A stretch of 64,000 nt of DNA from Octopus vulgaris (Eukaryota), in assembly GCA_951406725.2 (NCBI GenBank), contig OX597828.1:59396001-59460000 (forward strand). Direction: 5' to 3'. Under the pieces are notes generated by a model. It was given only the letters and a program-made list of their open reading frames with translations, ran no database searches and had not been told where the DNA came from. Below are positions 7,820-62,317 of the stretch, in pieces (positions within the stretch are counted from its first letter, which is position 1; each line of letters begins with the position of its first letter). Made by a program: the position numbers and the translations under genes.

Positions 7820-7943
7820 TCCGTTCACATCACATTTGAACATTTAGATAAATCGTTTTTCTTTTATCTTTCTTCCAACTTCACTTCTGTCATGTTTGTG
7901 AAAAGGAAAAAAATATAAACATTTTCTGACCACATGTTTCTAT
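7820..7943 (-). mobile_element. Penelope-like GIY-YIG C-terminal remnant (continuation of 10167-10500)
   Basis: The minus strand reads IETCGQKMF..FPFHK..RKIKEKRFI and joins in frame to LSEH across the LINE. Confidence 0.65.
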
Positions 7944-10166
7944 TGTCACCTATACATGTTCTAAACACGCTCCCACGAAATCTACTAACACAAACAGAAA
8001 CCGGCTCCCTAAAAAGAAAAAAAAATCACTCATCAGGCGCATCAAAAGACTCAACAAAAAAATCAACCAATTAAAATATTTCCACACACAACATCCACAT
8101 TCAACAACAATGAAAAGACTAGAGCTGGAAAAACTTCATCTGCAGACCGACATGAAAACCTCAATTGAAAATCAAAGAGCTGTGGAGGAACAGTGGGTAA
8201 TCAAAAACATCAAACAGAACCCAAAAGTGTTCTATTCTTATGCAAATAAGCATAGAACCACTGTCTCACCCACTGGGCCATTGATTGATGATAACGGCAT
8301 TCCCCAACACGATGCTGAAGAAATGGCAGAAATACTGCAGAAACAATACTGCTCTGTCTTTAGTGTTCCCACTGATATTGACGTAAGAGAAACGAACGAA
8401 GTTGACTCCCAACGCAAAATCTCAGACATAACCTTCACTGCCACTGACATCGTAGCAGCAATAAATGTGGTAAAATATTACTCTGCTGTAGGCCCTGATA
8501 GATTCCCCGCTAGTCTCCTGAAGGAATGTAGACACCAACTTGCAGTCCCTCTGACCAACCTCTAGAGAAATTCGTTAGACGCAGGTTATATACCGAAACA
8601 GTTTCTATCCCAGTCGGTCATCCCGGTTTTCAAACAGGGAAACAGATCCCTCGCAGTCAACTATCGCCCAATCTCACTCACCTCCCACATCATTAAAGTG
8701 TTTGAAAGAGTGTTAAGATCAAGGATAGCTGACTTCCTGGAGACCCACAAACTCCTAAATGCAAATCAGCATGGCTTTCGCTGTGACAGGGACTGTCTAA
8801 CACAGCTCTTACACCACATTGAAGATGTACTCAAAGCCTTGGGAACAGGTTCAAACTCTGACGTCATATATCTTGACTTCAGTAAAGCGTTCGACAGGGT
8901 AGACCATAATATCCTACTCTCAAAATTGGCAAATGTTGGAATCCGTGGAAAAGTTCTACACTGGATTAAGTATTTCCTGGCGAATAGAACACAACATGTT
9001 GTAGTTGATGGAGTCCACTCAAGCCCAGCAAAAGTCACCAGCGGTGTTCCCCAGGGGACTGTTTTGGGTCCGCTACTCTTCATAATTTACATAAACGACC
9101 ATTTCAGTGTTGTACATTACTGCAAAGTGAAAATATTTGCTGATGACACTAAGCTCCAGCAAATCGTCAATGAAGAAGCAGACCGAACTCAACTCCAGTC
9201 TGATCTATATGCTGTGAGTCAATGGGCATACAGAAACAAAATGCAGCTGAATGAGGGAAAATTTGAGCTGATACATTTTGGGAGAAATTCCTCACTAAAA
9301 CAACCATACTCTCTTCCTTCAGGGGAACCGCTCACAGCCTCTAACAATATCAGAAACCTGGGTGTAATTGTTGATGACGATCTCAGTTGGAGTGCACACA
9401 TCAACAAGAAGGTCGATATAGCTCGTAGGATGAGTTCCTGGATCTTAAGAACTTTCCGGTCCAGAGAACAAGGTGTCATCATACCACTTTTCTCCTCCTT
9501 TGTATGGCCACACCTTGAATACTGCTGCCCACTGTGGTCTTCCCATACAAGACAAAACATCTCCAGAATTGAGTCACCCCAGAGGGCACTCACTAAACGA
9601 ATTGATGGCATGGCTGCTCTCGATTATTGGGATCGCCTTAAAGCCTTGAAACTTTACTCCCTCCAGCGTTGCCGTGAGCGGTACATCATTTGTACGATGT
9701 AGAAAATATACCGCCAACTTTGCCCAAACGACCTTAACATTAGCTTCAAGGTTCATCCAAGACTGGGACCACGGGCCATACGTCCCCTGCCCAATTCAAG
9801 ATCACAACATACATGTACACTGCAACATAATTTCTTTTCCTCAACAGGCCCTGCCCTATTTAACATTGTCCCGAGGGAGATCAAAGAGGAAAAGGATCCC
9901 ATCAACTTTAAACGGAGTCTGGATAGATTCCTTCAAAGAATACCAGATAAGCCACCCATAATTGGATACAACTCACCCAACAAGAACTCACTACTTGAAC
10001 AAAACTTGATACAACTCAACCAACAAGAACTCACTACTTGAACAAAATTTGACTTAAATAAAACTTGACTTAAACAGGATTCGAATAATCCTATCAGGTG
10101 GTTCTATTAAGTTAGACATGGCCTGGACCAATCTTTGGTCCAAACATATCTAAGTTTATCTAAGTT
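7944..10166 (+). mobile_element. 5'-truncated CR1/L2-group LINE (RT pseudogene) with tandem-repeat tail
   Basis: NPKVFYSY, YRPISLTSH, QHGFR, YLDFSKAFDRVDH, GVPQGTVLGPLLF, FADD and PHLEYCCPLW, with in-frame stops. 3' hairpin ggaccaa-tct-ttggtcc and an (ATCTAAGTTT)2 tail. Confidence 0.93.
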
Positions 10167-13749: not shown

Positions 13750-14995
13750 TATACACACAACAGATTAGAAAAAAATCCTAACATCAGGCTACAACAAGTA
13801 ACCTTAGATGTAGAGAACTCTCCTAAGTATCCTAGCTGTCCCTAATAACATTGTTTTCTGCAGCTGCACTAAACAGGGTTTTATGCCTATTTCATCTATC
13901 CATCTGTTCAAATCTTTAGGGGTAGTTCTCAATGCATCTATAAGTACTGGAATACATTTTACCTGCACTTCCCACAGTCTCTGTAATTCAATAGCTAGGT
14001 TCTGGTACTTTGCTATTTTTTCATCATTTGGGATTGTAAAGTCAATTACCTGGAACTTTCTATTCTCTTTATCTACTACTACTAAACCAGGCTTTCTAAC
14101 TTGTATTACTCTGTCTGTCTGAATGTTAAAGTTCCACAACAGCTTATATTTCTTACTTTCCACGTACTTTACTAGGTTCAAGTTCCCACCATTTATCAGT
14201 ATGTACGAATCCCAGCTTTCTACATAACTCCCAATGAATTACGTTTCCTAGGATGTCATGTCTTTTCTTGTATTCTTTCTCTGCCAGCATGCTACATTCA
14301 CTTTCTATATGAGTAACGCTTTCCTCTTGATTTTAATAGTCTCCATTGAGAATTTACTTGGTTTTTATCTATCTTGGTTTTTATCCAATTAATCCTTATT
14401 GCTTGGTCTTGTGCAGCTACTAACAAACTTTCTGTCTCCCTTTTCAGCCTTCCGTTCCGCTACCATAACCATACCTCACTTCTACTATTCCCTGCAACTG
14501 TCTTTGGGAATCTACCATGCAACGCCTTCTCCTGCCAGTCAGGTAATTTCTGTTCTTTTTTCTGATTTTTAACTTCGGCTTTGGGCTTTTAACTTCCCTA
14601 TGCTGTGACTCTAGCAGCTTTTAATAAACTTTCTTCACTATTACCTACATAGAAGTATATATCTACTCTATCTAACTCCATACAGTCTTGTACAGATATT
14701 AACCTGCATCTGCCTTCCTTTCTAGGTAAGTATAATCTTGCTACTCCTGCTCTTGGGTGGAGTCTGCCATTCATATTGAATTCCTTCTTAGTTCTCCTGC
14801 CTAGCTCTGTTAATTGAGTTTTTGTCCAACCTACAAAAGCTGCTGAGTATCTAAGCAATGATACTGCCGAAGTATTTATAGCCTTCCTTAAATTCGAACC
14901 ATATACCTTTGAATTGGTTAGTTTCCTCACCCTTCTGATGTACTCAATTTTCGTTTCCATTTCTATAGTTAGTACTTTGTCAGATTCTAATACTG
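13750..14995 (-). mobile_element. Dong/R4-clade LINE 3' half (second subfamily)
   Basis: AINTSAVSLLRYSA, HPRAGVARLYLPRKEG, LLWNFNIQTD..RKP.LVVVDK, KYQNLAIEL, IPVLIDAL and LLGTARILR. Confidence 0.88.
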
Positions 14996-15185
14996 TTCCG
15001 GTTTTTACCACAAGCAAAACTCTCTGACATATTGACTCGGTGTTTTCTTTCAAACCTTAAATACAAAAGAGCTGAAGCCACACATTTCTGCTCTCCCATA
15101 TCTGATGAGTGCTTAGGCATTCTGTCTTTCCGGGGAAGATTTATTTACGAAACCATCAGTAACTTTTAACTGTATAAATCTATAA

Positions 15186-16670: not shown

Positions 16671-19600
16671 ATTTTTTTTATCTAGTTTCAGCTCACAAGC
16701 TGTGGCCATGCTGGGGCACCGCCATTTGGTGTTGCTACATGATTTTACTTCACGAATGCTTTTTAGCAACTGCCATTTGGTGCATGAGAGAGTTCGATGC
16801 AGCTGCCCTCATCTGCACCTCCTGCCGTGAAGTTGATTCATCTGGGACACCTGACAAGAAGAGATCCAGTTTTATTTTAAAGACATCTGCATCTACCCCA
16901 TGCAGGTCTCTCAGGTTCTTCGGGAGGATATTGAAGAGCTGTGGGCCTCGGAAGCCCAGGCTATCACAGTATCTTGTCCTACATCTTGATGGCAAATTTG
17001 GAGTCCTTGGCACTATGCAGTGGCGCCCAGTTCTGGCATTTGTGTAACTCTCGATGCCAAAGTTTGGGACAAGTCCTTCTAGGATCTTCCAGATGTATAT
17101 TATGGCATATCTTTCTCGCCTACGCTCTAAGGAATAGAGTCTCAATCTCTTGAGTCTTTCCCAATAGCTTATATGCTGCACAGAGGCTATCTTCTTCGTG
17201 TAGCTTCGTTGGATCGCTTCAAGTTCTGTGATTAACTTGACACTGGATGGTGACCATAGCTGAGAGCAATAGTCAAAATGGCTTAGGACAAGTGTCCTCC
17301 AGAGGACCATCATGGTTTCCTGGTCTCTTATTCTAAAGGTTCTAAGAATCCATCCGGTCAGCCGCCTACATTTCATTGCCAATTTTGCAACATGCACATG
17401 AAAGTTTGCGTCATCACTCATGTAAATACCCAAGTCTCGCACTGATTGTGCCTCTGGGATTGTAATCCCTCCAGGTCCAGTGTATTCATTGGGTATTGCA
17501 TTTAGTTTTGCATGCTGATAGCATAAAGCTTGAAACTTTTCAGCATTGAACTGCATGCTATTCTTTTCAGCCCACTTGTATATTTTGTCCAGCTCACATT
17601 GCAGGTGCTTAGTGTCTTCAGGTTTCTGTATTGCCTTTGAAACTTTTGTATCATCTGCATAACTTGTGATCGTGGCTCTCTGCGTGGCTGAGGGCATTGT
17701 CTGAGAGGGCCATTATGAACAGTAGTGGTCCCAAAACACTGCCTTGCGGAACACCGCTCACTATTTGCGTGTTAATAGAAGTGGCTAGTACCACCTGACT
17801 TCTATCCTTCAGAAAGTCATGAAGCCATTCTCCCAATTTTCCAACTATGCCAAGATCACGCAGTTTGTGACATATCATTCCATGATCGACTTTATCACTT
17901 CCACATTTGAGTGGTTGAGCAGCCGTTTCAGCACCCAGTCATAGTGTTGTAGGAGCTGAGTTAAGCAGCTTCTTCCTGGTCGGAAACTATGTTGGGTGTC
18001 AGGCAGCAAGACATTTTCTTCAAGGAAGGTGATTAGTTTCCTTCTGACTATTCGTTTCATGACCTTGCTGATGTGTGAGGTCAGAGAGATAGGTCTGTAG
18101 TTCTTGGTCTCCGCTCTGCTACCTCCTTTATGAATAGGGCATATTTTACCTTCCTTCAGTTTTCTTGGAAGTTTGCCAGTTGCAAGGAAGCTCTGAAAGA
18201 GGAACTGCAGTGGTCTTGCTAGGACTCTCTTACATACTTTTAGAAGGATTGCTGAGAATCCATCGGAGACAGTAGCTGAGTTTGTTTTCATTTCATCAAT
18301 AGCCTTTATTACATCGTCTTCCTTTATATTGATGTAATCAATAATCGCTGCCTCTGATTTTATATCTGCAGTGGTAAAGAAGTCAGTTGGATTGCTGACT
18401 TGAAAATGCCCTAGGGGTGGAGTGAAAATACTCTTGAATTGCTCATTTAGTATTTCACATACCCTCATTGGGTTTCCTGTGGGTGTGCTATCCTTTTCAA
18501 GGAGTGGCCCTATCCTACAGTTCACCGTAGCTGTTTCTTTGGCATACCTGTAGATAGCTCTGGGGTTAGATTTTATGTTGTCTATAGCCCAGGCTTCTTT
18601 GTCTGCTCTTTCTTTTTCATGGGAGAGTTGCAGACATTTTTCAATTTCCAATAGTTTTATTTTCAGGCGGGACTTTTCACTGCTTTCAATTTGTTTGTTT
18701 AAGCGATTTCAAACTTTTGTACGCCGTCTCATTAGAATTTTCCTCTCTCTGGAGATTTTGCTCTTGTGTACAGTGGCCTTTCTCTCTGGGACACATTTGT
18801 AGCATATGGCTTGCATTACAGACATGAATTGTTGAAGTTTCATGTCGATGTCTGGCGAGAAGAGACATTCAGGTCAGTTTTTTTTTAGGATCTCTTTCTC
18901 AATTTGTTTCCAGTTTGCCTTATGGAAGTTCAAGCAGGAAAGCTTCTGAGAGTTTCTTGTAGGCTGCATATCCATGCTTTCTTTTGGCCCGTACATGGTC
19001 AGCTCTACCATGTTGTGATCCGAGAGTAGTGTCGGTGTCACTTTCACATTATGGATGAGATCCATATTATTTGTGAAGCAGAGATCCAGTATGTTACCTG
19101 CCCTGGTTGGTTGGAGTATTACTTGCTCCATGTACAGAGTGTTGATGAGGTTCAGGAGAGACCTCGCCTGTCCTCGTTCACATCGTGTCATTCCTGGAAG
19201 AAAGGCCCTCGGGCCATCTGACATTGGGTAGATTGAAGTCTCCCATAAGAAGTACACTTATGTGTTGTTCTAATGTGACTAGAACTTCTTCTATTTTTAT
19301 AAGGCAGTCTTCAAACTTGCCTACATGACTTGGGGCATCTGGAGGGCGATATGTAGTACATATAACTACACCAAATTGCTTTATATGTACAATTAGTGTG
19401 TCACACACCGAATTTGAGTATAACAAAAGGACCTGGGGTGTGAGGTCCTCACGGATGTACATAGCAACTCCTCTATGACTCCTTTATTTTCTGTCGGTAC
19501 ATCATACTGTGGTATGTGTATTTCCGCATCTGCTATGTCCGGTTTCAGGTGTGTTTCCGTAAGTGCTATGCATAAGGCTTGATTGCATGAAACAAAGTCT

Positions 19601-20595
19601 CTCAAGAACGGGATTTTTGTCCTGTTACTGAGTGTTAGCAGTCCTCTGATGTTCCGTAGGAGCATCTAGGTGATGTGTATGCTGTTGCCGGTGGTGTCCA
19701 CCTTGAGTCTATTTGCTGTGGCGGTTTTGTGTATTGTGGATAGTCCCATCTGCGAGATTGAGTTTGATGGAGCCAGGTTAGCTGCTGTACAATCTTTTGT
19801 GCCATGCACAAAAACGATTCTTGTTCAGCAGCCGCCTTTCAATAACATGTTGGCGGTTTGTAGCACGCACCACATCTGCGTACCTCCGTTTTGGGGCAGG
19901 TGGGGCGTGGTCCATTCTTTTTCCTTTTGGTAGTTGGTTTCTGCCCTGTTTCATGTTTATGTGGCGGGGTCTTTGGTGTACCAAAGGGTAGTCTGCACCT
20001 TCCTCTCCATGCCAGCAGACACCTTTCAGGTAGAATTTACACATTCGTGTGCGCTGTCTGTTTCTATCCTTTTTGGTACATGGATAGTCAGGTTTGCTTC
20101 TATCCTTGGCTGTTTCATCTTTTGGTTTTGTTTGAGTTTTAGTTTTTCCTTCTTTGGCTGTTTCATCTTTTGTGTTTCTTTTAGTTTTTCCTCCTTTTAC
20201 TTCCTTTTTGGCTCTTTCATCTCCATGGTTTTGGCTTTTGGTGCTGGTAGGAGCACTTGCACTTTGGTTTACTTCCCGGACAGGTTTCTCACTTGAATTA
20301 TCTTCTTTGATGTTGTCCTGGGTGTCTACCAAGTGGGGGTGACATCTTTCATCAGCACCCGTGCCTCCATCCTTGCCATCTTTACTTTGTTCGTTGTCAA
20401 AGATGGCATCAAGCGTGCCGATGTGAGATCTTATGAGTGCATAGGAGCGTATAAACTCCTGCTTCTTTCGCTCTATCTGCGCTATTGTCCTTGTATATCC
20501 ACTGCTCTTCAGCGCAGCTGTAATTATGTTGTTCGGCGCATTGCAAGGCTCTTAGGAACAACGCCAATTCGTTACTCCTCCAGGTTCTGGACATT
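16671..20595 (-). mobile_element. Near-full-length CR1/L2-group LINE: CCCH zinc-finger ORF1 plus APE-RT ORF2, frameshifted
   Basis: ORF1 CKFYLKGVCWHG...H; APE motifs NIRGL, LTETHL, YRPP, GDFN, LDLCFTN and SDHN; RT motifs YRPISLTSH, GVPQGSVLGPLLF and YADD; 3' stem-loop and A-tail. The 5' boundary is approximate. Confidence 0.92.
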
Positions 20596-24220: not shown

Positions 24221-25342
24221 TCACACGTAAGTTGTGCATGTCTCATTTCCGGTTCTTCCATTTCCTGCTACGGAAGTATATCCTACATGTTTAGATTTTA
24301 CTGCCGGACAAAGCTTTCTAGGGACATAAGAGATGAAAGCTCTCCTGAACTGAGGCCCCGTTAAACAGTAAACAAAAAAATAGCATGCATAATGTGAGAA
24401 GCATAGTTCCTCAGTAAATCTTCGAATTGCTAAGAAGGTGAAATATCTGTTCCAAACCGGGTCGGATCGGATTTCTTGATCTGTCATGTTAAAATTTCCT
24501 AAATGGATGTTACTTTCAACAACAAACACAAGAGTTACTGGAAGAGTAGTGAAGATCAAGTAAAAAGAAATGGACAACAAAGTTATAGTCGAAGCAGCGT
24601 TGCTGTTTGATGTCGTTGTCTGGTAAGGGATTTGAATCGGATTAGACTTTGTAATCTTCCTAATTTCGCGAATTACTTGTATATTAAAAAGGAGCACAAA
24701 AATCGGCACAATACCAAATATAGTTAACTCACTTAACCAATTCCAAATAATTGTGAAACTGTAGTTTTCGATCTGACCTTCTCGGTATGTGCAAATTTGA
24801 AACTTTTCATCGTAGTACCAAATGTAGATCTGAATTGAAGCAAGCGACGTACACGTCACGATGAGTCCACAGACAACATATATAGCTCTGTTAACAGTAC
24901 AATATTTTTCTTTTTGGAATGGCTTACACACCGCAATCCATCGTTCCACTGTAAAAGCAAGAACAATAAGTGGTGCCATATACTGTGGGATCATGTAGAT
25001 GAAGTTGTACAATTCACATATTCCAGTGTAAGCAACGGTTGAAATACCCCAAGCTATTTGTAGTTCATTTATAAAATGTAGCCACAGGAACATAAAGTCG
25101 GTTATTGACAAAGCAGCCAAATAGATTGCCGAAGAGTTATTGCGTCTGATACGTGGCTGCATCCATAGAAAGGCTGAAATTGGGTTTGTAAAAAGTCCAA
25201 TGATATACCAAACTATTGTAACGTAGCGGTCAACATAGAGCGCTACGGGACAGAATTCTTTAAAAATGCCAACAGGCCATGAATAGCGATGGTAAACACT
25301 GTTGTTTAAGTAGGAATACTCTGTCGTCTGGTTGTCTTCCAT
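24221..25342 (-). CDS. Class A (rhodopsin-family) 7TM GPCR, peptide-receptor-like (FMRFamide/sex-peptide/GPR139-142-like group); single coding exon, ~373 aa
   Basis: Uninterrupted ORF starting MEDNQTT at ATG 25342. A pyrimidine-rich acceptor (cattttctacttccAG) ends at 25357. Seven hydrophobic segments, with TM1 GLFTN, TM2 YLAALSITD, TM3 C..FTVERWIAVCKPF, an ECL2 Cys, TM6 LP and TM7 FFVY. N-glycosylation sequons NQT and NNS in the N-terminus. The longer 431-aa ORF call is read-through of a (TG)n microsatellite. Confidence 0.93.
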   Translation of the reverse strand: MEDNQTTEYSYLNNSVYHRYSWPVGIFKEFCPVALYVDRYVTIVWYIIGLFTNPISAFLWMQPRIRRNNSSAIYLAALSITDFMFLWLHFINELQIAWGISTVAYTGICELYNFIYMIPQYMAPLIVLAFTVERWIAVCKPFQKEKYCTVNRAIYVVCGLIVTCTSLASIQIYIWYYDEKFQICTYREGQIENYSFTIIWNWLSELTIFGIVPIFVLLFNIQVIREIRKITKSNPIQIPYQTTTSNSNAASTITLLSISFYLIFTTLPVTLVFVVESNIHLGNFNMTDQEIRSDPVWNRYFTFLAIRRFTEELCFSHYACYFFVYCLTGPQFRRAFISYVPRKLCPAVKSKHVGYTSVAGNGRTGNETCTTYV

Positions 25343-25356
25343 ATTGCAGCTAACGT

Positions 25357-27760: not shown

Positions 27761-28219
27761 TCCTTAAAAGAAATCATAGGTTACACTGGTAATACTAGCA
27801 GTTTCAGCCCCTAGCGCATATCTATTGGGGTTTTGTAAAAGAAATGATAATGGTTTTAACTTTAAAAAATATACAAAATCAGAGAAAGATTATTTTCTTG
27901 TAATATTCTGTTTGAAATATTTATAAGACCGGAGTCGATCATTCCGATCTCTACTGTAAGTGTGAGGAATATTGTCCAGGCCTTTGCGTGCCTTTCAATG
28001 GCAGTGACTAAGTTGGCAGCTACTTTTAAAAAGTGCAGAAACTTCGGCAAATTTAGTGTGGAATACAATCGAATACTTTCCTATAACCAAAGCCAGGCAG
28101 TCAAAAGGTTCCTGTGGTGTGTTCTTATTTCGAACAGCATAGAATTGTTTCTGAAAAACTGTTCACCACACCCCTACGCTCTCTTCTTTCTACTGCACAA
28201 GCCGGCTCATCATATATGT

Positions 28220-28268
28220 CAATGTGCCTTATATGCCCATGCGCCTTATAAGCCCAAAAATACGATTG
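28220..28268. mobile_element. Probable pogo/Tigger-type TIR remnant
   Basis: gtgccttata..gcgccttataagcccaaaaatacg resembles the GCGCCTTATAGTCCGAAAAATACGGTA-type terminus. Confidence 0.35.
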
Positions 28269-28439
28269 CATCTGATGATTCCATGTGCTCTGTAATAAAA
28301 TTTTTAAAGATATTTAATATAACAGCTATTGGCTTAATACAACAGCTATTGTGTAATGACATTGTTTTCGGAGAAATAACCGGTTTCGCATTTTTTCAAA
28401 TCTCTCAAATTCCTTTACCGATACATACATACATACATA

Positions 28440-28487
<48 letters not shown>

Positions 28488-29062
28488 ACACACACAGAGG
28501 CACACACACACACACAGACTCACACACACACACAGGCACACACACACAAATACACACACACACGCATACACATATATGTATGTGTGTATATATTTTAAAA
28601 GTCGATGCGAAACTTACTTCTTCCAGTTTTACTAAGTACCTGAATTCTTTATCAGAACGTCGATAACCTTTTTGGAAGAAGTTTCTCTCTAGTGTGCACC
28701 AGCGCTTTCGATTATCTTTTCAAACACACGTGTTCTTGGATAGTGTATGAAAGAGGAAGTTGTTATTTCCGTAGTAGAGGTAGTATTAACTATTTCCAGT
28801 TTAATTTCGGACTTAGGATTTTATAAAGTATTTTTCCTTTGTCTTTCATAGTTGGACATTTTTATCCAATACTTTGTAAGAAAGGAATGTGTAAATATCC
28901 TTTTATCATTGCTTATCATTTGAAGTGCCGATTATTTTCGGTTTACCTTCGGATTTAGAATTCTTATAGAGTACTTTCTTTTGCCTTTCGTAGTTGATCA
29001 TTTTCATCTTTTATTTTGTGAAATAGGAATGTTTTATACACACACACACACACACACACACA

Positions 29063-29150
<88 letters not shown>

Positions 29151-29321
29151 GGCGTAGGAGTGGCTGTGTGGTAAGTAGCTTGCTTACCAACCAGATGGTT
29201 CCGAGTTCAGTCCCACTGCGTGGCATCTTGGGCAAGTGTCATCTACTATAGCCTCGAGCCGACCAAAGCCTTGTGAGTGGATTTGGTAGACGGAAACTGA
29301 AAGAAGCCCGTCGTATATAGG

Positions 29322-29352
<31 letters not shown>

Positions 29353-29356
29353 GTAC

Positions 29357-29394
<38 letters not shown>

Positions 29395-29590
29395 GTGTGT
29401 GTATATGTTTGTGCGTCTCTGTTCGTTCTCCCAGCATCGTGTGTTTACGTCCCCGTAACATAGCGGTTCGGCAACAAAGTCCGATAGAATAAGTACTAGG
29501 CTTACAATGAATAAGTCCTGGGGTCGATTTGTTCGACTAAAGGCGATGCTCCAGCATGGCTACAGTCAAATGACAGAAACAAGTAAAAGA
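29151..29590 (+). mobile_element. SINE family C, full length
   Basis: Head ggcgtaggagtggctgtgtggtaag, GAGTTCAGTCC box, internal (TA)n and LINE-like tail; flanked by (TA)n. Confidence 0.88.
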
Positions 29591-29640
<50 letters not shown>

Positions 29641-29758
29641 GAAAAATGAATGGAAATGGCTTTTCTGTTAATTTTTCCACTTAAATAATTAGATGTAAAC
29701 TTATCAAATTACTGAAGTGGAAGAATTATCAGAAAAGCCATTTCTATTAATTCTTTCC
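29641..29758. repeat. ~120-bp foldback (mini-MITE-like)
   Basis: aatggaaatggcttttctgttaatttttccactt pairs with aagtggaagaattatcagaaaagccatttctatt. Confidence 0.7.
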
Positions 29759-29999
29759 AATATATAATACTGTACCAAGAATTTTTATTTCTTATTCTAC
29801 TACATGTTTTTGTGTGTGTGTGTGTGTGTGTATGTGTGTGTGTTTGTGTGCGTGTGTCACACACATGTAGATTTTTGATAATCAGTTATCCACATGTTCT
29901 ATCAATACATTATTTTAACAGTTGAGTTCAGTTTATCCCTACTTGTAACTAACATGCATACGCAAAACTCTGGGAACCAATCCAGTGAAATATTATCTG

Positions 30000-30094
30000 G
30001 TTTATAATAAATATTATAAATTGTTATTAATTGTTATAAATTGTTATAAATTGTTATAAATTGTTTATAATAAATATTATAAATTGTTATTAAT
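30000..30094. repeat. AT-rich 10-bp minisatellite (TTGTTATAAA)n
   Basis: Direct reading. Confidence 0.75.
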
Positions 30095-30130
30095 CCGTCA
30101 ACCTCTTTTCTCCCTCACCCCTATCTCTCT

Positions 30131-30193
<63 letters not shown>

Positions 30194-30322
30194 TATAAAA
30201 ATGCGCATGTGATGCTATATATAAACATCGTTAAACGCGACTATGCCAGGATACCCACATCGTTAGAAATAAGAGCTAAAAGTTGTAACGTCGTAGGAAA
30301 GGCACATGTGTGTGTATGTATG

Positions 30323-30360
<38 letters not shown>

Positions 30361-30465
30361 ATCCAAACAAGAAAACACAGAAAAAAAGAGAAAAAAACAC
30401 AGCAACGCAGGACGTGGAACAATTAAAGTATTATTGACGCTCAGGAAAGAAGGGAAGGAAGGAAG

Positions 30466-30500
30466 GTTTAACGTTTCGAGCGGAGCTCTTCGTCGGAAAC
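30466..30500 (-). ncRNA. Minimal type I hammerhead-like motif (variant core CCGACGA plus extra A)
   Basis: GUUU-CCGACGA-A-GAGC-UCC-GCUC-GAA-ACGU-U-AAAC: stems I and II pair and stem III is the palindrome ACGU. Confidence 0.55.
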
Positions 30501-30588
30501 AAGGGAGAAGGAAAGATCCCAAGGAGGGAAGACAGAGGCGAAAATATTTGAGCTGGTGGTGCTCAAGAGATCACATATATATATAAAT

Positions 30589-30629
<41 letters not shown>

Positions 30630-30638
30630 CAGACACAC

Positions 30639-30695
<57 letters not shown>

Positions 30696-30752
30696 AATAA
30701 ATATATATATATGCTTAAAGGGGCTGCAATCGCCCAAAACACCGCTCCGAGA

Positions 30753-30815
30753 ATGCCTTAGACTGAACGTTCAGTTTCGGCTATCTCCTATATCTGTAGC
30801 CTTCTCAATAAGCAC
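30753..30815 (-). ncRNA. Type I hammerhead ribozyme motif with U3:A8 core
   Basis: GUGCUUA-UUGAGAA-GGCUA-(13 nt)-UAGCC-GAA-ACUGAACGUUCAGU-C-UAAGGCAU; all three stems pair and the triplet is GUC. Confidence 0.75.
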
Positions 30816-32239
30816 CGTTTGTTCCGGGCTTTATCCCCTGTCAGCATATATGTATTTGTCATAAAATATTATGGATGATTTAGCGGATCGCTAATGTGGA
30901 TACAATAATTAATATAAATAGCTAATCGCAATGTGATACTCTAATGGAAAAACATAAACATCGCTAAATGCAACTAAATGTGTCAAGACACTTACATTGC
31001 TAGAAATAAGACCTAAAACGCTCTAATGCTTTAGGAAAAGCACATAAATGTATACATGTATGCTTACTAGGGCAGCAATCATGCAAAACTCCGAACTGCT
31101 TCTTATTTAAGATGTTTATTGCAGAAATGGTAAAGATGTACACACAAAAGTTCAGGGAGTGTTCAACACACTCGGATCCACAGCCCTTTGCAGCTGCACA
31201 CAATTACAGCAACCAGAATCCTTAGAACCGGTGGAAATATCTGGCAGTATATGAATTATCGAACACCTAACAGTTGAGAGGGCTCAGAGAGTTTTCCTCA
31301 AAATAGGTGTCTCAACTCACCACTAAAGACACATAAACATGGATTTTCAGCGAAGACGATTTCAGATTTAAAAGCAAGGGATTATGTGGAAGCATTGCAT
31401 TGAAAACCTTTAATGTTCTTGAAATAAGAAACAGGATGACCGTACGTAATATTCTTTTCCAAGGATTTCCTCTCATGTCTATGAGCATTAAAAATGAAAT
31501 ATTTTTGTTCAAATGACGTATACGTGTTCAAATATTTGTTTTACATTAAATGAAATATAGTTATAGAAAGAAAATACAAAGAATAAAAACTTACTGATAC
31601 AAAGTTTAAAATTGTAAGAGCCTAGCGAGACCCAAAAATAGTCTCCTCCTTGGTGTCTCAGAATAATGACTACTCTATTATTTTTGCCACCCTCTACGTA
31701 TTTACAGACAGCGCAACACATTATTTTTTTCGATTACAATATATTGTGTGATCTACTCCCATTTTTATTTTTGTCTCGTGAGGTAAATTATTACCATGTA
31801 ACAAACAAACACTAAATAATCAATAATCTCAGTTCAACAGACATAAAATATTTACTCTTTTTTCCTTCGTTGGCTGTTTACGTATCCACTTTACGCTGGA
31901 TATCAAAAATAGGTTATATTTTTTCTGTCTTCCATGAAGTCATTGATGTAAAAGCTGTCTGTCGGCTGAGTCGATAAAACAAAAAGAAAATATCCGATAT
32001 ACAAGTTAACCGTCGATATATATAGATATAGAATTTAGTATCAAATATATACCTTTTGTTTCTTATGAAACAACACCAAATTACAAGCATCAAGACAGAA
32101 TATATATTCTGATAAACAATATACAAACTAATAAAGACAGAGAATATACAGTAGATCAAATATATACCGAGTATAACCACTATGCTATCATATATATATA
32201 TATATTATGCATATGTGTATATACATATATTTATGTATA

Positions 32240-32279
<40 letters not shown>

Positions 32280-32321
32280 CATACATACATACACACATAC
32301 ATACATACATACATACATACA

Positions 32322-32355
<34 letters not shown>

Positions 32356-32361
32356 CATACA

Positions 32362-32405
<44 letters not shown>

Positions 32406-32456
32406 TCGGGGTTAATACAGTAAGTAATACTCAATACATAAGAGTAAAATAATTTA

Positions 32457-32556
32457 TTATATAGAAGGAACAGATAGTACTGTTTCATTCAAGAGAAATC
32501 TTCAGGAAGATTTCTCTGAATGAAACATACTAGTCCTGTAAAGCTCCTTCTATATA
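32457..32556. repeat. ~100-bp palindrome between (TA)n tracts
   Basis: tgtttcattca-agagaaatcttc/gaagatttctc-tgaatgaaaca, with outer arms tatagaagga/tccttctata. Confidence 0.75.
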
Positions 32557-32558
32557 AT

Positions 32559-32606
<48 letters not shown>

Positions 32607-33201
32607 AGAACATACTAATCCGAAATAAATATGGCCACGAAAGTGAACTCTCAGGAAATATTTTTCTCCCCTTCTCTCTCTTTCTCTTACTCTCATTCTC
32701 ACACACTCTTCAAGTAAAAAGAAACAAAGTGATGAAAATAAGATTGAGACAGTTAAAGAAAGAGAGAAAGAATTAAGATAAAACATTGAAGAGAGTCAGA
32801 GAGGGATAAGTGATATAAAATCTCTTCTGATCACAATATACATACAAATCCAGTAACACAGTTATGAAGTAATTTTATCTGAATGTATTGTTCTAGGAAG
32901 TGGATTTTCATTCTTATTCCTGATTTTTATTAATTATTTTACCAGTTTTCGTTTTCGTTGCTGTTGATTTGTTGATAATTTTCTCTGAAATACTTTAGGT
33001 TCTTTTGATGCAGATATATCTTTGCTTCCAGGATTGCTTATCGACCTTTCTGTCTGTATCTCTCCTAAATTGCATGTATATCTGGAAGTTTTATACTCAC
33101 ACATATGCACACAGACGCTCGCACATACATACATACATACATACATACATACATACATACATACATACATACATACATACATACATACATACATACATAC
33201 A

Positions 33202-33259
<58 letters not shown>

Positions 33260-33262
33260 ATC

Positions 33263-33498
33263 TTTCACTTCAAGCCAAATTAATACACTAAAGTTAATTA
33301 CGCACGCCAGATTTCCCGTCGAAAAAAGTACGTGGTGACATCTTTTAAGTTTATTTCCAATCGACTCTGACAAACAAAAAGAACCGTTTTTCTTTTCTTT
33401 TTTGAAAGAAAACCTCTTCGTATAGGGAGAAGATTTTGGAACTTCTACCTCTTATAAGATTAGTACCGCTTTTCATTTATTTATTTTACCGTAATTCA
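33263..33498 (-). repeat. ~235-bp repeat, inverted partner of 21420-21649
   Basis: Reverse-complement match. Confidence 0.85.
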
Positions 33499-34103
33499 TG
33501 TGCCCCATCCTGCTGAAAATAAAATTGCACATCTTCAAAGTTGAATGCTTATCATGATAGATTATCGCAGCAAGTTCAAGTGAATGGGACCTATCAGAGG
33601 TACCATCAAACCAGAATGTTTCACTTAATCCTTTTGAAGGTAAGCTTTTGATGATTACCATACTGTAATATGCAGACTTTCAGGGCGTTAGTAGATGCAA
33701 AGCTGGTGTTTAATAGAGCCATTTTATTTTAATGAAGCTTCATCTCTCCAAATAATCTGTGATGGAAAATATGTATCCTCTGTATATCCTGCCAAACTCC
33801 GTTCTTTGGTTTGGCTCCTCTTTATTCAGAGAATATTCTTGGAATGTAACGTGTACAAAGACAGCGCTTTAAACTATGATGGCCACTTCAATTTGAAACT
33901 GCTATTTCACGACCCACGTAAAAGATTTTTGTACTTTAGAAAATACATTTATAGGAAGGTGAGTCCTGTTCGTAGATTTCTTTGTAACCCCCCCCCCCCC
34001 CTTAAATTTTTGTCTTTGCAGTTCGATTGCGTTTTCAATCTGCTATCAGCAGTTCTATAAACATTTTTATTGTTCAAAAGCTTAGTCTAGTATACATCAT
34101 TGC

Positions 34104-37152: not shown

Positions 37153-38378
37153 TTGGGTTGGCAATTAAATTCCCGCCGTTTTTTAAAATATAAATTTTTT
37201 AAAGGTTTCATAAAAAAATATCAACTAATTAATCAATAATGTATTCACCCTTGTTGTTTACAACTTCTTCCCAACGTTCAACAAGATTTTCAAGACCTCG
37301 TTGGTAGAAATCAATCGATTTCGACTCGAAAAATTGTTTCGACCAAGCTCTCAATTCTGCATCAGTATTGAACGAAACTCCGCGCATAGCATTTGAAATA
37401 AATCGATAAAGAGGGAAATCCGTTGGTGCCAAATCAGGAGAATACGACGGGTGTGGCAGCACTTCCCAGCCATACGTTTGAATGACCAAGGAAGGCATTC
37501 AAACGCATGGCTGGGAAGTGCAGCAGAAAACTCCATGCTGCCGATTTGGTCTTTTCTCTTGAATAGCCGTGTTGAGTCGTTCCATCTGTTGAAAATAGAG
37601 TTCCGGGTTGACCGTTTAGTTCCGTTCAAGCAATTCTTAATGGATAATCCCTTTCCAGTCCCACCATACGCACAACATCGTTTTACGCGGATGAAGATCT
37701 TGCTTCAGGTGCGGTGTCGCTTGTTTACCGGGGCTGAGCCATTCCTTACACTGCTTCATATTGATGTACAGGCACCAGTTTTCGTCGCCAGCAAGCAAAC
37801 CAGCGGAGACTGTGGCTCGTTGATTTTCATTGCTGTCACTTAAAGCGTGCGGAACCCATGCATACTTCTGAATATTTTCCATCGAGTGAAGTTGCTTCTC
37901 TATATCAGTGTGGGAGCATTCCATTTTCTCTGCCAGTTCCCTTGTCGTTTGAAGATAATTTTCGTGCAAAAGTTGGTTTAATCGCTCTTCATCGAACTCA
38001 ACTGGACGGCCAGAACGAGGTGCGTCTTTGAAGTCAAAATTTCCATGTTTGAACTTGGCATACCAATCACGAGCGATTCTTTCACCTATGACACCCTCTC
38101 CATACACAGCACAAATATCGTGAGCAGCTTTTGCGGCCTTAGAACCTTGATTAAAAGCAAAAAGAAGGAGATGTCGAAAATCCTCGTTTTTCTTAACTTG
38201 ACATTCCATTTTAATGATCTGAAAATAAACAAAAATTAACTAAAATTAACTAGAAAAGAGAAACAAAACAAAATAGATTCCAAAATGATTCAAAAATAGA
38301 AATCTCGAAAAAAAAAATTCTAAAATTAAAAAATTCCAAATTAAAAAAAAAACGGCCTTAACTTAGTTGCCAACCCAA
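37153..38378 (-). mobile_element. Full-length mariner (D,D34D) transposon fossil
   Basis: TIRs ttgggttggcaa(t/c)taa at both ends, with TA on the left and TG on the right. Motifs W..KF..GNFD.KDAPRSGRP, WVPHAL, GDENW, MLCVWWD and HPSYSPDLAPTDF; frameshifts and an internal deletion. Confidence 0.93.
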
Positions 38379-58219: not shown

Positions 58220-61200
58220 GAGTGAGCCTTTTATAAGTTTAAAAGAGGAAGGGAAAAGAAGGAAGGAAAAAGGGGAAGAAGGAGATAGAGAGAAAGAGAG
58301 AGGAAAAAAGGGAAGAGAAGGGGAAAAAATGTTCGGAGATAAAACTATCAACAAAAAAATACAGACGAATACAGATCTGCTAGCCTTAAGAAGCTGCGCT
58401 ACGATCAATGCTTACGTGTAGAGAACCCTAAACTGACAGATCCATCTCCTAATATAAGAATGGAAGCTCGTCATGCTTCATGTCAACAAATCAAACAATA
58501 AACCGCATTGGTCGTCGCGCGGATTGCAAAAGACCACGTTCCCGAAAATTGAACCAAATTCTGATTGAAAAATCAGCTACTGGATCAAATTTTCCCAACA
58601 CACAGGAGCTGGACGTACCCCACAACCGGAATATTCCAACAGATGGCCATCCATGCTCATCACCAAATAATCAAAAGAAAAAGAAGGAAAAATGGTCTAG
58701 GGAAGATAATAAAGAAGTTCTTGAGGCCTTCTACCATGCCATATATTTCCCCACATATAAATCTAACACTGTACAAACATACTTAAACTGGAGACAGAAA
58801 CACCCTGAAGTAAGACCCTACATAGACAGTAACAAACTTGCCAACGTCAGAAGAAATATTATAAAAAAAATTACTGACTGAAGTAGAGATTGATCAAGTT
58901 AGACAAGCAATATCGGATAAAAGGAACGAAGCTGCAGTTAGAGAAGATAATACAGAGGAAATAATTATAGACCAGCCCAGGGCTGATAAAAACGAAGTAA
59001 GGATTGAAAGAGTTAGTATAAGTGATAGGCAAAGTAAAATACTCCCTGAACCAATCATAAGCACTAAGACAGATGAACATCAAATAGATAAAGGAAGTCA
59101 CACAAATATTGACCCAACAGAACTACATGAGCTAAAAAATCAAATCATGATTGAATGGCTGAAAATTAAAAGAAACCAGCACGGATGAATTTGATACACT
59201 CCCTAAAATCCGCAACTCTAACCAAAACATGAAAATAATTGGTAAAATCCGGCTTGCACTTAAGGATATAATTTCAGCTAATGATGTTGATATCACAAAT
59301 CTCAACCACCTATACTATGCATCCGCGAAAATCTCAACGATCCTATGTGGTGTAAACATTAGAAAACGGCAACATTCCCACAAAAAGCCTTCTTGGTAAG
59401 AGCGTCTGCAAAAACAAATTAAACTATTTAGATCTGACATTGAATATTTGAAAAACCTTAAGGTTCACAAGACTACCAAACCTACAAAAACCCCGAAATT
59501 GCTGAAAAAATACAATATGAAAACTATACTTGATATTGATGCCACCATAGAAACCATCAAACAAAAGGTATCTGCCAAAGCTGCCCGCATAGCGAGGTAT
59601 GAAAAGCGTGTTAGATTTTTCAAGGACAACAACATGTTCAAAAATAACCCCAAGAATTTTTACAGGAAGATAGGAAAAACAGCGTTTACTGCAAGGTCTG
59701 TACCATCAAAAGAAGAAGTGCAGGGATTTTGGAATAAAATTTGGGAAGAAGAAAAAACACAGAAGGAGAAGGCCCCGTGGATTGACAGAATATCTACAGA
59801 ACTGGACCCCTTAGAAGAGCAAAAGTGGGAGGGTGTCAAGGTAGAAGATATAAGATCTGCTCTCAGGAGGTCAAGCAAAGGGAAGTATCCAGTAAAGGAT
59901 AAAATTCCTAACTTCTGGCTGAATGCCTTCCCAGAGAGCCATGAACTGCTAACAGAACTGTACAATGATGTTTTGCAACACCCTAGTAGGATGCCTCCTT
60001 GGCTAGTTAATGGGTTAACATTCCTGCTTCCAAAAAGTGAAGAAACAAATGAACCAAAAAACTATAGACCCATAACCTGCTTAACAACTATGTACAAAAC
60101 GCTAGCATCTGTCATGACGGAATATACCTATAGTTTTTTAACAGACAGCAGCATATTCCCTAATGAACAGAAAGGATGTAAACGTGGATCCTACGGCTGT
60201 AAAGATCAACTACTCATCAATAAAATGATCTTAGAATATTGTCACAAACGACACAAAAACTTATCAATAGCCTGGATAGACTATAAAAAGGCTTTTGATA
60301 GCCTACCACATAGCTGGATTAGGAAATGCCTGGAAATGTATAAGATAGCACCTACTCTGCGAAACTTTTTGGCTGTAAGTATGAGATCATGGAGAACCAC
60401 ACTAACTCTGAACAGTGACAATGAATCCCTAAATGCTGGTGATGTAAAAATTTCGTGTGGCATTTTCCAGGGTGACTCACTGTCACCAATCCTCTTTTGT
60501 TTATCCTTAATACCTCTCTCAAAGCTGCTTAATGACGCGCAGTACGGGTATAAAATGTTTGATAAAAATATAAATCATCTCATTTACATGGATGATTTAA
60601 AGCTTTTGCAAAAAATGACCAACAACTCAAGGGCTTACTAGCGATAGTCAAACAATTCAGTGACGACATCAGAATGCAATTCGGCCTCGATAAATGTGCA
60701 AAAGCTACCTTTATCAAAGGAAAAATGACAGAAACATATAATGTTAACCTTGACCAGCAGAATGTTATAAAAGAACTAGACCCAGCGGAGAGCTACAAGT
60801 ACCTAGGGGTAATTGAAGGGAACGGAATAAGGTATTCGGAGATGAAGGAAAGGATCAGGAGAGAATGCTATCGAAGAGTGAGAGCAATACTCAAGACAGA
60901 GCTGAATGCAAGAAACAGGATTGAAGCGATCAGTGCATTAGCCATACCAGTAGTGACTTACAGTTTCAATATCGTTAACTGGTCAATTACTGAAATATGT
61001 CAACTCGACAGAAAAATAAGAAAACTGTTGACAATGCATAGAATGCACCACCCTAAGGCAGATACAGACCGACTTTATCTGCCAAGGAAAGAGGGAGGCA
61101 ACTGGCAATAACAATGAAGATTGCTACAATTGGCCTAGACACCTACCTGAAAAAGTCTGAGGACTGGATGTTAAAACTTATCTCAAAACATGAAAACAAG

Positions 61201-62317
61201 AAAGCATCATACTCAGTAACAAAACAGGCGAAGGAATATCTAAGTGAATTCCGAATACAACACATTTCGGAATTAGAGATAGACATACAAGAAACAAGCA
61301 CAGAAAAAGCTAGGCGCATGAAAACCCGTGCCAAAACTGCGGCCTTAGATATTCTCAATAATAAATGGCAAGAAAGACCTCTCTATGGCAAATACCCAAA
61401 GAGAGCGAATAATGCAGATATTGACAAAGCCCTGACCCATCAATGGCTAATGGCCTCTGGCTTAAAATCTGAAACAGAAGGGTTTATCATAGCAGCTCAA
61501 GATCAATGCCTACCAACAAGAAACTACCAGGCCAACATATTAAAGAACGGCAGTAGCCCAACATGTCGTGTATGCCGACAACAAAATGAAACCATTGATC
61601 ATGTTGTCTCCAAATACAGTCTTCTAGCGCCTACAGAGTACCTCAACAGGCATGATAGAGCTGCACAATATATTCACTGGGTAATTTGCAAAAACCTGGA
61701 TTTGCCCCATGAAAAATACCGGTGGGAACACAATCCACCTCCAGTGCTTGAAAATGACCACATCTCACTCCTCTGGAACTTCACCATTCAAACTGACAGA
61801 AAAATAGATGCAAATAGGCCAGACATCATATTGAAAGACTTCAGACAAAGAACATGCCTCCTCATTGATATGACTGTCCCAATCGATATAAACGTATCTG
61901 TCAAGACCTACCAAAAACTGAGCAAATATAAAGATCTTGAAATAGAAATCAGTAAAATGTGGAACCTGAAGACTAAAACAATACCTGTTGTCATAGGTGC
62001 CCTGGGAATGATAGCGAAAGGGGCTGATTGCTACCTAACTCAGATACCAGGAAACCCCAAAATGGCAGAAATTCAAAAGATAGTGCTCATGGGAACTGCT
62101 CATATCCTACGCAAAATACTCTCTATGTAATCCCAAGGTTTAAAACAATTTTTTTTAAATTTATGTATTAGACATTCACTAGTACAACACAAAAAAAACC
62201 CAAATATATGGCACACTAGGCATAACAGCAACGTGAACTTCCAACCTGTTGTCTCTTGAGGTCTCTGTGTGAGACTTGGAGCCAACTTGTACAGACATAA
62301 AGCAAAAGTCAAACATA

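Follow-up and report, generated by a model that had tools for sequence, protein, structure and literature searches.

Does a hammerhead ribozyme with an exchanged core pair, lying sense to and upstream of a receptor gene, reflect selection for catalysis, and does it act on that gene? The question is raised by a motif on the minus strand of a stretch of 64,000 nucleotides of the Octopus vulgaris genome (contig OX597828.1; hereafter the window), described in the initial annotation as a structurally complete type I hammerhead with a compensatory U3:A8 core. Its parts are as follows.

30815-30753, minus strand: type I hammerhead motif, read directly from the sequence.
30813..30820, minus strand: decayed 5′ strand of an extended stem I, with C>G at 30813 and G>A at 30818 and 30820.
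30809-30812 with 30760-30757, minus strand: proximal stem I, 4 bp, from constrained folding and sequence.
30808-30802, minus strand: core U3-U4-G5-A6-G7-A8-A9, from sequence.
30801-30797 / 30783-30779, minus strand: stem II, 5 bp, with G10.1-C11.1 as closing pair, from constrained folding.
30784..30796, minus strand: loop II, 13 nt, with a private 7-nt insertion at about 30795-30789.
30778-30776, minus strand: GAA, from sequence.
30775-30762, minus strand: helix III, a 14-nt palindrome that is a family feature and is unchanged in the window copy.
30761, minus strand: C17; cleavage is predicted from sequence between 30761 and 30760.

Sequence and constrained folding located the motif and all the pairs that had been named for it on the minus strand. 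With helices of 4, 5 and 5-7 pairs and helix I open, it is of type I, and its core agrees with the type I core by way of a Watson-Crick swap at 3:8, giving U3:A8. The description as structurally complete holds for the core, stem II, stem III and the four proximal pairs of stem I, but the distal part of stem I is lost and loop II is enlarged. Similarly, the four proximal pairs of the proposed 4+3-bp bulged stem I are sound, whereas the "3 bp" are a new register created by two private changes. When both strands of the window were scanned with relaxed type I criteria, without a shuffle control, three matches came back: this motif, a minimal hammerhead at 30496-30470 on the same strand, which the annotation missed, and, at +63240, a weak match rich in A/T.

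Searches with Rfam over 28000-34000 gave 103 matches at E<=10, with no hammerhead family among them, and at gathering scores the hammerhead models had no match at six loci that included intact copies of the family described below. As Rfam misses intact copies too, it is uninformative for this motif. Folding energies do not discriminate either: the three-stem fold of the window copy lies 3.2-8.4 kcal/mol above the ensemble (shuffle z-score of -0.8), which falls in the range of the same gap in nine intact family copies (2.2 to 10.6 kcal/mol, median 5.3). That the motif is not a chance hairpin follows from its membership in a repeat family with covarying hammerhead stems.

By sequence comparison, the motif is one copy of a dispersed, non-coding repeat of about 346 bp that carries a type I hammerhead. 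A search of the genome with the 146 bases surrounding the motif scored 40 of 81 candidate places, all of them at E<=2.1e-10, and the best places other than the motif itself were 73-87% identical. When the genome was searched for a pattern with stem II and GAAAC as anchors and no constraint on the core, there were 299 matches, 100 of them listed, versus 4 in a reversed control. In the window, the repeat and its immediate neighbors are arranged as follows.

30708..31094, minus strand: full unit of about 346 bp plus a terminal overlap of about 45 bp, with 75% identity over 397 columns to family copy L002.
30200..30323, minus strand: partial fragment of the hammerhead repeat unit, 73% identical to the first unit and continuing the tandem insertion.
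30355..30565, minus strand: a different repeat of about 200 bp, far more abundant, between the two parts of the first repeat.
30500-30466, minus strand: minimal hammerhead of the ~200-bp repeat, with a C4 core, an extra A after A9 and an AACGUU helix III.
30572..30712, no strand assigned: (TA)n/(CA)n microsatellite between the two elements, from sequence.

The ~200-bp repeat was likely inserted after the first repeat, because it and the microsatellite separate the two parts of the latter. Its minimal hammerhead has 5,585 exact matches in the genome, and most copies among the matches listed carry C4 for U4. Farther away, the window contains broken LINE-type frames (RVT_1 at 8566-9699 and 59400-60638) and a mariner transposase fragment (HTH_48, Transposase_1); the LINE and mariner remnants span 7930-9702 and 58453-62130 on the plus strand and 16750-20551, 13804-15056 and 37637-38239 on the minus strand.

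The unit itself (31094-30749) is 346 bp long, with a GC content of 36% and a longest open frame of 38 codons, and thus has the size and composition of retrozymes (150-450 bp, GC below 45%, no coding frame). Head-to-tail copies spaced 280-387 bp apart occurred at 10 of 115 distinct places, a count that excludes L135, a 112-bp array; two of the head-to-tail loci, L033 (290 bp) and L034 (331 bp), have two ribozymes each. The window locus has a single ribozyme of the family. L135 (G000:C25:4012444-4013708) consists of about 12 tandem units that contain nothing of the family but its hammerhead part, and many of these units have C4. An opposite-strand match was present at 21 of the 115 places, some of these being fold-backs at the palindrome, and a (TA)>=6 run lay within 400 bp at 84 of the 115, versus 37% of random window positions. 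The copies sampled are all old, and most are monomers; the longest true tandem has two ribozymes.

This anatomy, set beside published descriptions (PMC7229834, PMC4209133), suggests that the family is likely of the non-LTR retrozyme type. The type I hammerhead, the low-GC non-coding unit of about 300-350 bp, and the occurrence of monomers and head-to-tail dimers are all shared with metazoan non-LTR retrozymes (PMC7229834), whose repeats in mussels are about 350-390 bp (Cervera and de la Pena 2020, PMC7229834); as in the mollusc hosts of those elements, the genome also contains autonomous Penelope elements. Compared with those retrozymes, the octopus copies are old, mostly monomeric and known from sequence alone, with a long helix III (6-7 bp), and the window copy has a private U3:A8 core. 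In the giant squid, 235 type I hammerheads have been noted (PMC6962438). The Penelope-associated origin proposed for the motif is thus upheld in substance, as it descends from a true type I hammerhead in a Penelope/retrozyme-type repeat. We found no published description of the family in the octopus and cephalopod hammerhead and retrozyme literature; supplements, Repbase and Dfam were outside that scope and may list it.

We asked whether the U3:A8 pair is a trait of this family. Sampling of 163 loci gave 189 profile hits over the core, 125 of them unique and 120 after one array was collapsed; leaving out two copies without an anchor, four with a 6- or 9-nt core and the window copy left 113 parsed copies. 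The core is canonical in the family, CUGANGA being intact in 74 of the 113. An extra U between A9 and G10.1 marks a subfamily (37/113, among them L016, L039, L044 and L105), an extra A follows A9 in 8/113, and subfamilies are set apart by compensatory changes in the stems. At 3:8, the states were CG in 95 copies, UG in 6, CA in 5, GG in 3, AG in 2, CU in 1 and UA in 1. The one UA copy among them, L136, is broken elsewhere, by U4G and G10.1A.

With a stricter parse (102 copies), a change on both sides of the 3:8 pair was observed once, against 0.45 expected by shuffling (p=0.39), and Fisher tests gave p=0.35 (n=102) and p=0.28 (n=98, after removal of four copies recruited by a U3:A8-weighted search); with 5-7 single changes per side, the power of these tests is low. 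In contrast, both-side changes exceeded the shuffles at pairs I.2, I.3, II.4 and III.6 (p<=0.003), although the shuffles ignore relatedness, so that this excess reflects differences between subfamilies. Genome-wide, the exact U3:A8 pattern matched once, at the window copy. Among 26 exact matches with a free core, the window copy was the only one with U3:A8 and the only one with a long loop, and when the 86 matches to a pattern weighted toward U3:A8 were inspected by eye, single changes were frequent and both changes were noticed only in L136.

These counts divide the earlier argument that covariation implies catalytic selection of the motif or of its source element. Covariation at I.2, I.3, II.4 and III.6 supports the view that the family's source element was selected for the hammerhead fold, with C3:G8 as its pair. 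The 3:8 pair shows no covariation in the family, the very outcome that had been named beforehand as speaking against the reading, and the family data give no support for calling the change compensatory, as CG is present in 95/113 copies and U3:A8 is private. That U3:A8 is a natural variant is correct (PMC4209133, PMC3088659): such hammerheads are natural and active in vitro (PMC3088659), so the variant is not new. The U3:A8 of the window copy is most likely private decay rather than a product of selection, as the family comparison suggests.

What a selected U3:A8 family looks like can be seen in the same genome. U3-A8 marks about 1,300 hammerheads of the Cercyon Penelope elements of Schistosoma (Cervera and de la Pena 2014, PMC4209133). 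The window motif resembles these in its U3:A8 core, palindromic helix III and Penelope-type setting (PMC4209133), but there the pair marks a family, whereas the window copy is one in a C3:G8 family, in which U3:A8 is not a family-wide trait. The true counterpart of Cercyon in the octopus genome is a separate Penelope family, whose U3:A8 minimal hammerhead has 1,347 matches; among 100 listed matches, 98 are U3:A8, one is C3:A8 and one U3:G8. This hammerhead lies downstream of the endonuclease in 20 of 30 GIY-YIG loci (L176-L205). Several of the GIY-YIG Penelope elements have intact RT-EN frames of 781 codons, with an upstream frame of 330-360 codons, and at L209:6066 and L210:5883 (G000 C16) the U3:A8 hammerhead is about 0.9-1 kb downstream of the RT-EN frame. 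The Penelope family is young and autonomous and is not the family of the window motif. We found no description of it or of the ~200-bp repeat in the cephalopod hammerhead literature, supplements and repeat libraries being outside that scope.

Comparison of the window copy with its relatives showed how far it has drifted. At 26 of 309 columns it departs from the majority state among its 20 nearest copies, and its post-insertion change amounts to about 8-11%. Inside the ribozyme, the changes are C>G at 30813, A>C at 30755, A>G at 30785 and C3>U. The four changes in stem I (at 30813, 30818 and 30820 and, on the opposite strand, at 30755) all break pairs and are uncompensated, and about 8-14 nt are deleted just upstream of the decayed 5′ strand. 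Distal stem I consequently has A-C mismatches at two pairs that the family keeps (d1 in 86/108 copies, d3 in 81/109). Loop II has 6 nt in 108 of 115 parsed copies versus 13 nt in the window copy. The window copy thus lacks the extended helix I and loop II of a tertiary contact that the family layout suggests.

Stems II and III and the four proximal pairs of stem I are unchanged, and the rest of the core together with all three proximal stems is intact in only 11 of 119 other copies. Conservation of the ribozyme region nevertheless does not exceed that of the remainder of the unit (4/57 versus 31/277 changed columns, p=0.48); the insertion, both distal G>A changes and positions 7-8 are left out of the 4/57. 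Under independent decay, the expected number of complete U3:A8 copies is 0.09 for 299 copies and 0.4 for 1,400 copies, the latter number being a rough reading of contig depth ratios, which are not copy numbers. Given a slip route to the core (below), other pairs that would rescue it and the thousands of hammerheads in other families, a chance U3:A8 is uncommon but not remote.

A contig from a presumed RNA run, X1 (270 nt, 30720-30989, depth 2.8), has three differences from the window, and counts of change types among the rows listed imply that it keeps U3 and A8. Shared with this second sample, U3:A8 is not an assembly error. A tree of 94 copies and the window copy pairs the latter with L025 (U3:G8) with a support of 98; as the tree rests on a query-anchored alignment with a backbone support of 32-46, the window copy cannot be assigned to a subfamily. 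The extra-A core is found in 4 of the 10 nearest copies, and L088 has lost one base at the same place.

The privacy of U3:A8, the four uncompensated changes in stem I and the 7-nt insertion in loop II together argue for decay. Very probably, then, the motif is an old copy of a C3:G8 hammerhead repeat in which U3:A8 arose by chance after insertion and not by selection. Tandem copies of such a repeat would be transcribed, the hammerhead would cut the transcripts to monomers, and a Penelope reverse transcriptase and endonuclease acting in trans would copy the monomers back into (TA)n sites. The shortest route to the present core would start from the family's 8-nt CUGANGAA variant and consist of C3>U and the loss of a single base. 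Such a loss would slide A9 into position 8, so that "A8" would be the old A9, with no substitution there. C3>U plus two substitutions at positions 7 and 8 would fit as well, and the tree does not choose between these routes. The broken distal stem I and the enlarged loop II would have cost the ribozyme its loop-helix tertiary contact.

Contact between loop II and helix I is needed for efficient cleavage in vivo (PMC4209133). Because the family's version of both contact partners is lost, residual cleavage is predicted to be slow or absent in cells and to have no role for the host. Detectable cutting by the window copy at 10 mM Mg2+ is, by our estimate, somewhat short of an even bet.

A different origin of the unit would leave the copy a decayed relic all the same: it could be the pseudo-LTR of an autonomous Penelope element instead of a stand-alone retrozyme. 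We regard this as unlikely, although it has several points in its favor. The family loci L206, L207 and L208 adjoin Penelope RT/EN fragments of like orientation; Penelope insertions typically have inverted or partial-tandem layouts and target microsatellites (PMC8557442); and a 2026 preprint derives retrozymes from pLTRs (10.64898/2026.07.22.740005). At L206 and L208, however, a (TA)n run lies between the unit and a fragment that starts mid-ORF, and no unit follows the endonuclease end; the three Penelope-adjacent fragments look, from their sequence layout, like separate insertions into (TA)n runs. The 30 GIY-YIG loci gave one weak match to the unit, at 14.5 bits, and 20 of them have a different hammerhead. 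Neither the adjacent Penelope fragments nor the 30 GIY-YIG loci yielded an autonomous partner element for the family.

Less probable still is an origin of U3:A8 in the source RNA, with a rare master or replicating retrozyme variant, selected for cleavage, leaving a single copy. Natural tolerance of the pair (PMC4209133, PMC3088659), its fixation in another retroelement family of the same genome and a chance expectation below 1 for a complete U3:A8 copy are consistent with such a source, and since the possible sister L025 also has U3, that base could predate the window insertion. No sibling with U3:A8 and an intact core, however, was seen among the 113 parsed copies, the 26 free-core matches or the 86 weighted-pattern matches. 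Four pair-breaking changes in stem I are also not expected from a selected source, though they may be later decay, and it is the C3:G8 family, rather than the U3:A8 Penelope family, that the flanks match.

Downstream of the motif, on the same strand, lies the receptor gene.

24221..25356, minus strand: rhodopsin-family GPCR, a single coding exon of 373 aa (Pfam 7tm_1, E 9e-14).

The reading frame of the GPCR begins with an ATG at 25342, and an AG before 25356 is a plausible acceptor. The closest solved relative of the GPCR is the TRH receptor (E 2e-8), followed by GPR183 and neurotensin receptors, all of them weak matches. The annotation was right that the GPCR is real (7tm_1) and that the motif is sense to and 5.4 kb upstream of its acceptor. 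It is very improbable, in our assessment, that the motif was co-opted, i.e., that a second change following C3>U re-established the pair and that the GPCR pre-mRNA is now cleaved by the ribozyme within a 5′UTR intron, which would tune its level. In this scenario, to which we give equally little credence in its fuller form, a retrozyme copy was rescued in place by a selected A8, and a slow intronic ribozyme trims the pre-mRNA of a neuropeptide-type GPCR.

The motif's sense orientation, its position 5.4 kb upstream of the plausible GPCR acceptor next to the ATG, and the intact proximal stems would suit such a role. Conserved intronic hammerheads are known in amniotes, in C10orf118 and RECK (PMC3088659), and these too are lone, sense to their gene and, as the window copy may be, intronic; unlike it, they are conserved across species and cleave robustly (PMC3088659), whereas the window copy shows uncompensated decay. 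The ribozyme has no excess conservation within the unit, and its tertiary scaffold is eroded. Another, unrelated hammerhead lies 265 nt from the motif, and chance alone would place a sense-strand hammerhead within 5.4 kb of about 0.7% of genes, a figure based on exact matches of three hammerhead families alone.

Evidence from sequencing runs consists of the assembled contigs of four runs, two presumed to be RNA and two DNA, which carry no read ends, strand or level. Low-depth contigs of two presumed RNA runs over parts of 30720-32106 are compatible with transcription of the region as co-option would require, but the X1 contig, which may be DNA, crosses 30761 uncut at depth 2.8. In run X7, the long orthologous contig begins at 30834 and does not reach the motif, and the run contigs showed neither a transcription start nor a splice joint to the GPCR exon over the stretch that they cover. 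Contigs of X2, presumably RNA from another organism, cover 31254-32106 at about 5% divergence; a joint in X2 that goes back 853 bases without splice-type ends may be a duplication or an assembly effect. Nothing that we found links the motif to control of the GPCR gene. If co-option were true, it would be a rare instance of a host receptor gene under the control of a transposon ribozyme, and a case of compensatory evolution in a single exapted repeat.

Two further possibilities were rejected: chimerism with the U3:A8 Penelope family, with which the core letters alone are common, and a heterodimer with the second hammerhead 265 nt away, as the helix I strands are not complementary.

As it stands, the motif is an ordinary relic of a retrozyme-like repeat. 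A compensatory-looking pair in one copy of a repeat does not amount to covariation until the family has been counted. In the octopus genome, three hammerhead repeat families came to light: an old canonical one with at least 299 matches, a minimal one with 5,585 and the U3:A8 Penelope family with 1,347. The last of these, with its fixed pair, is the better test bed for U3:A8 in vivo.
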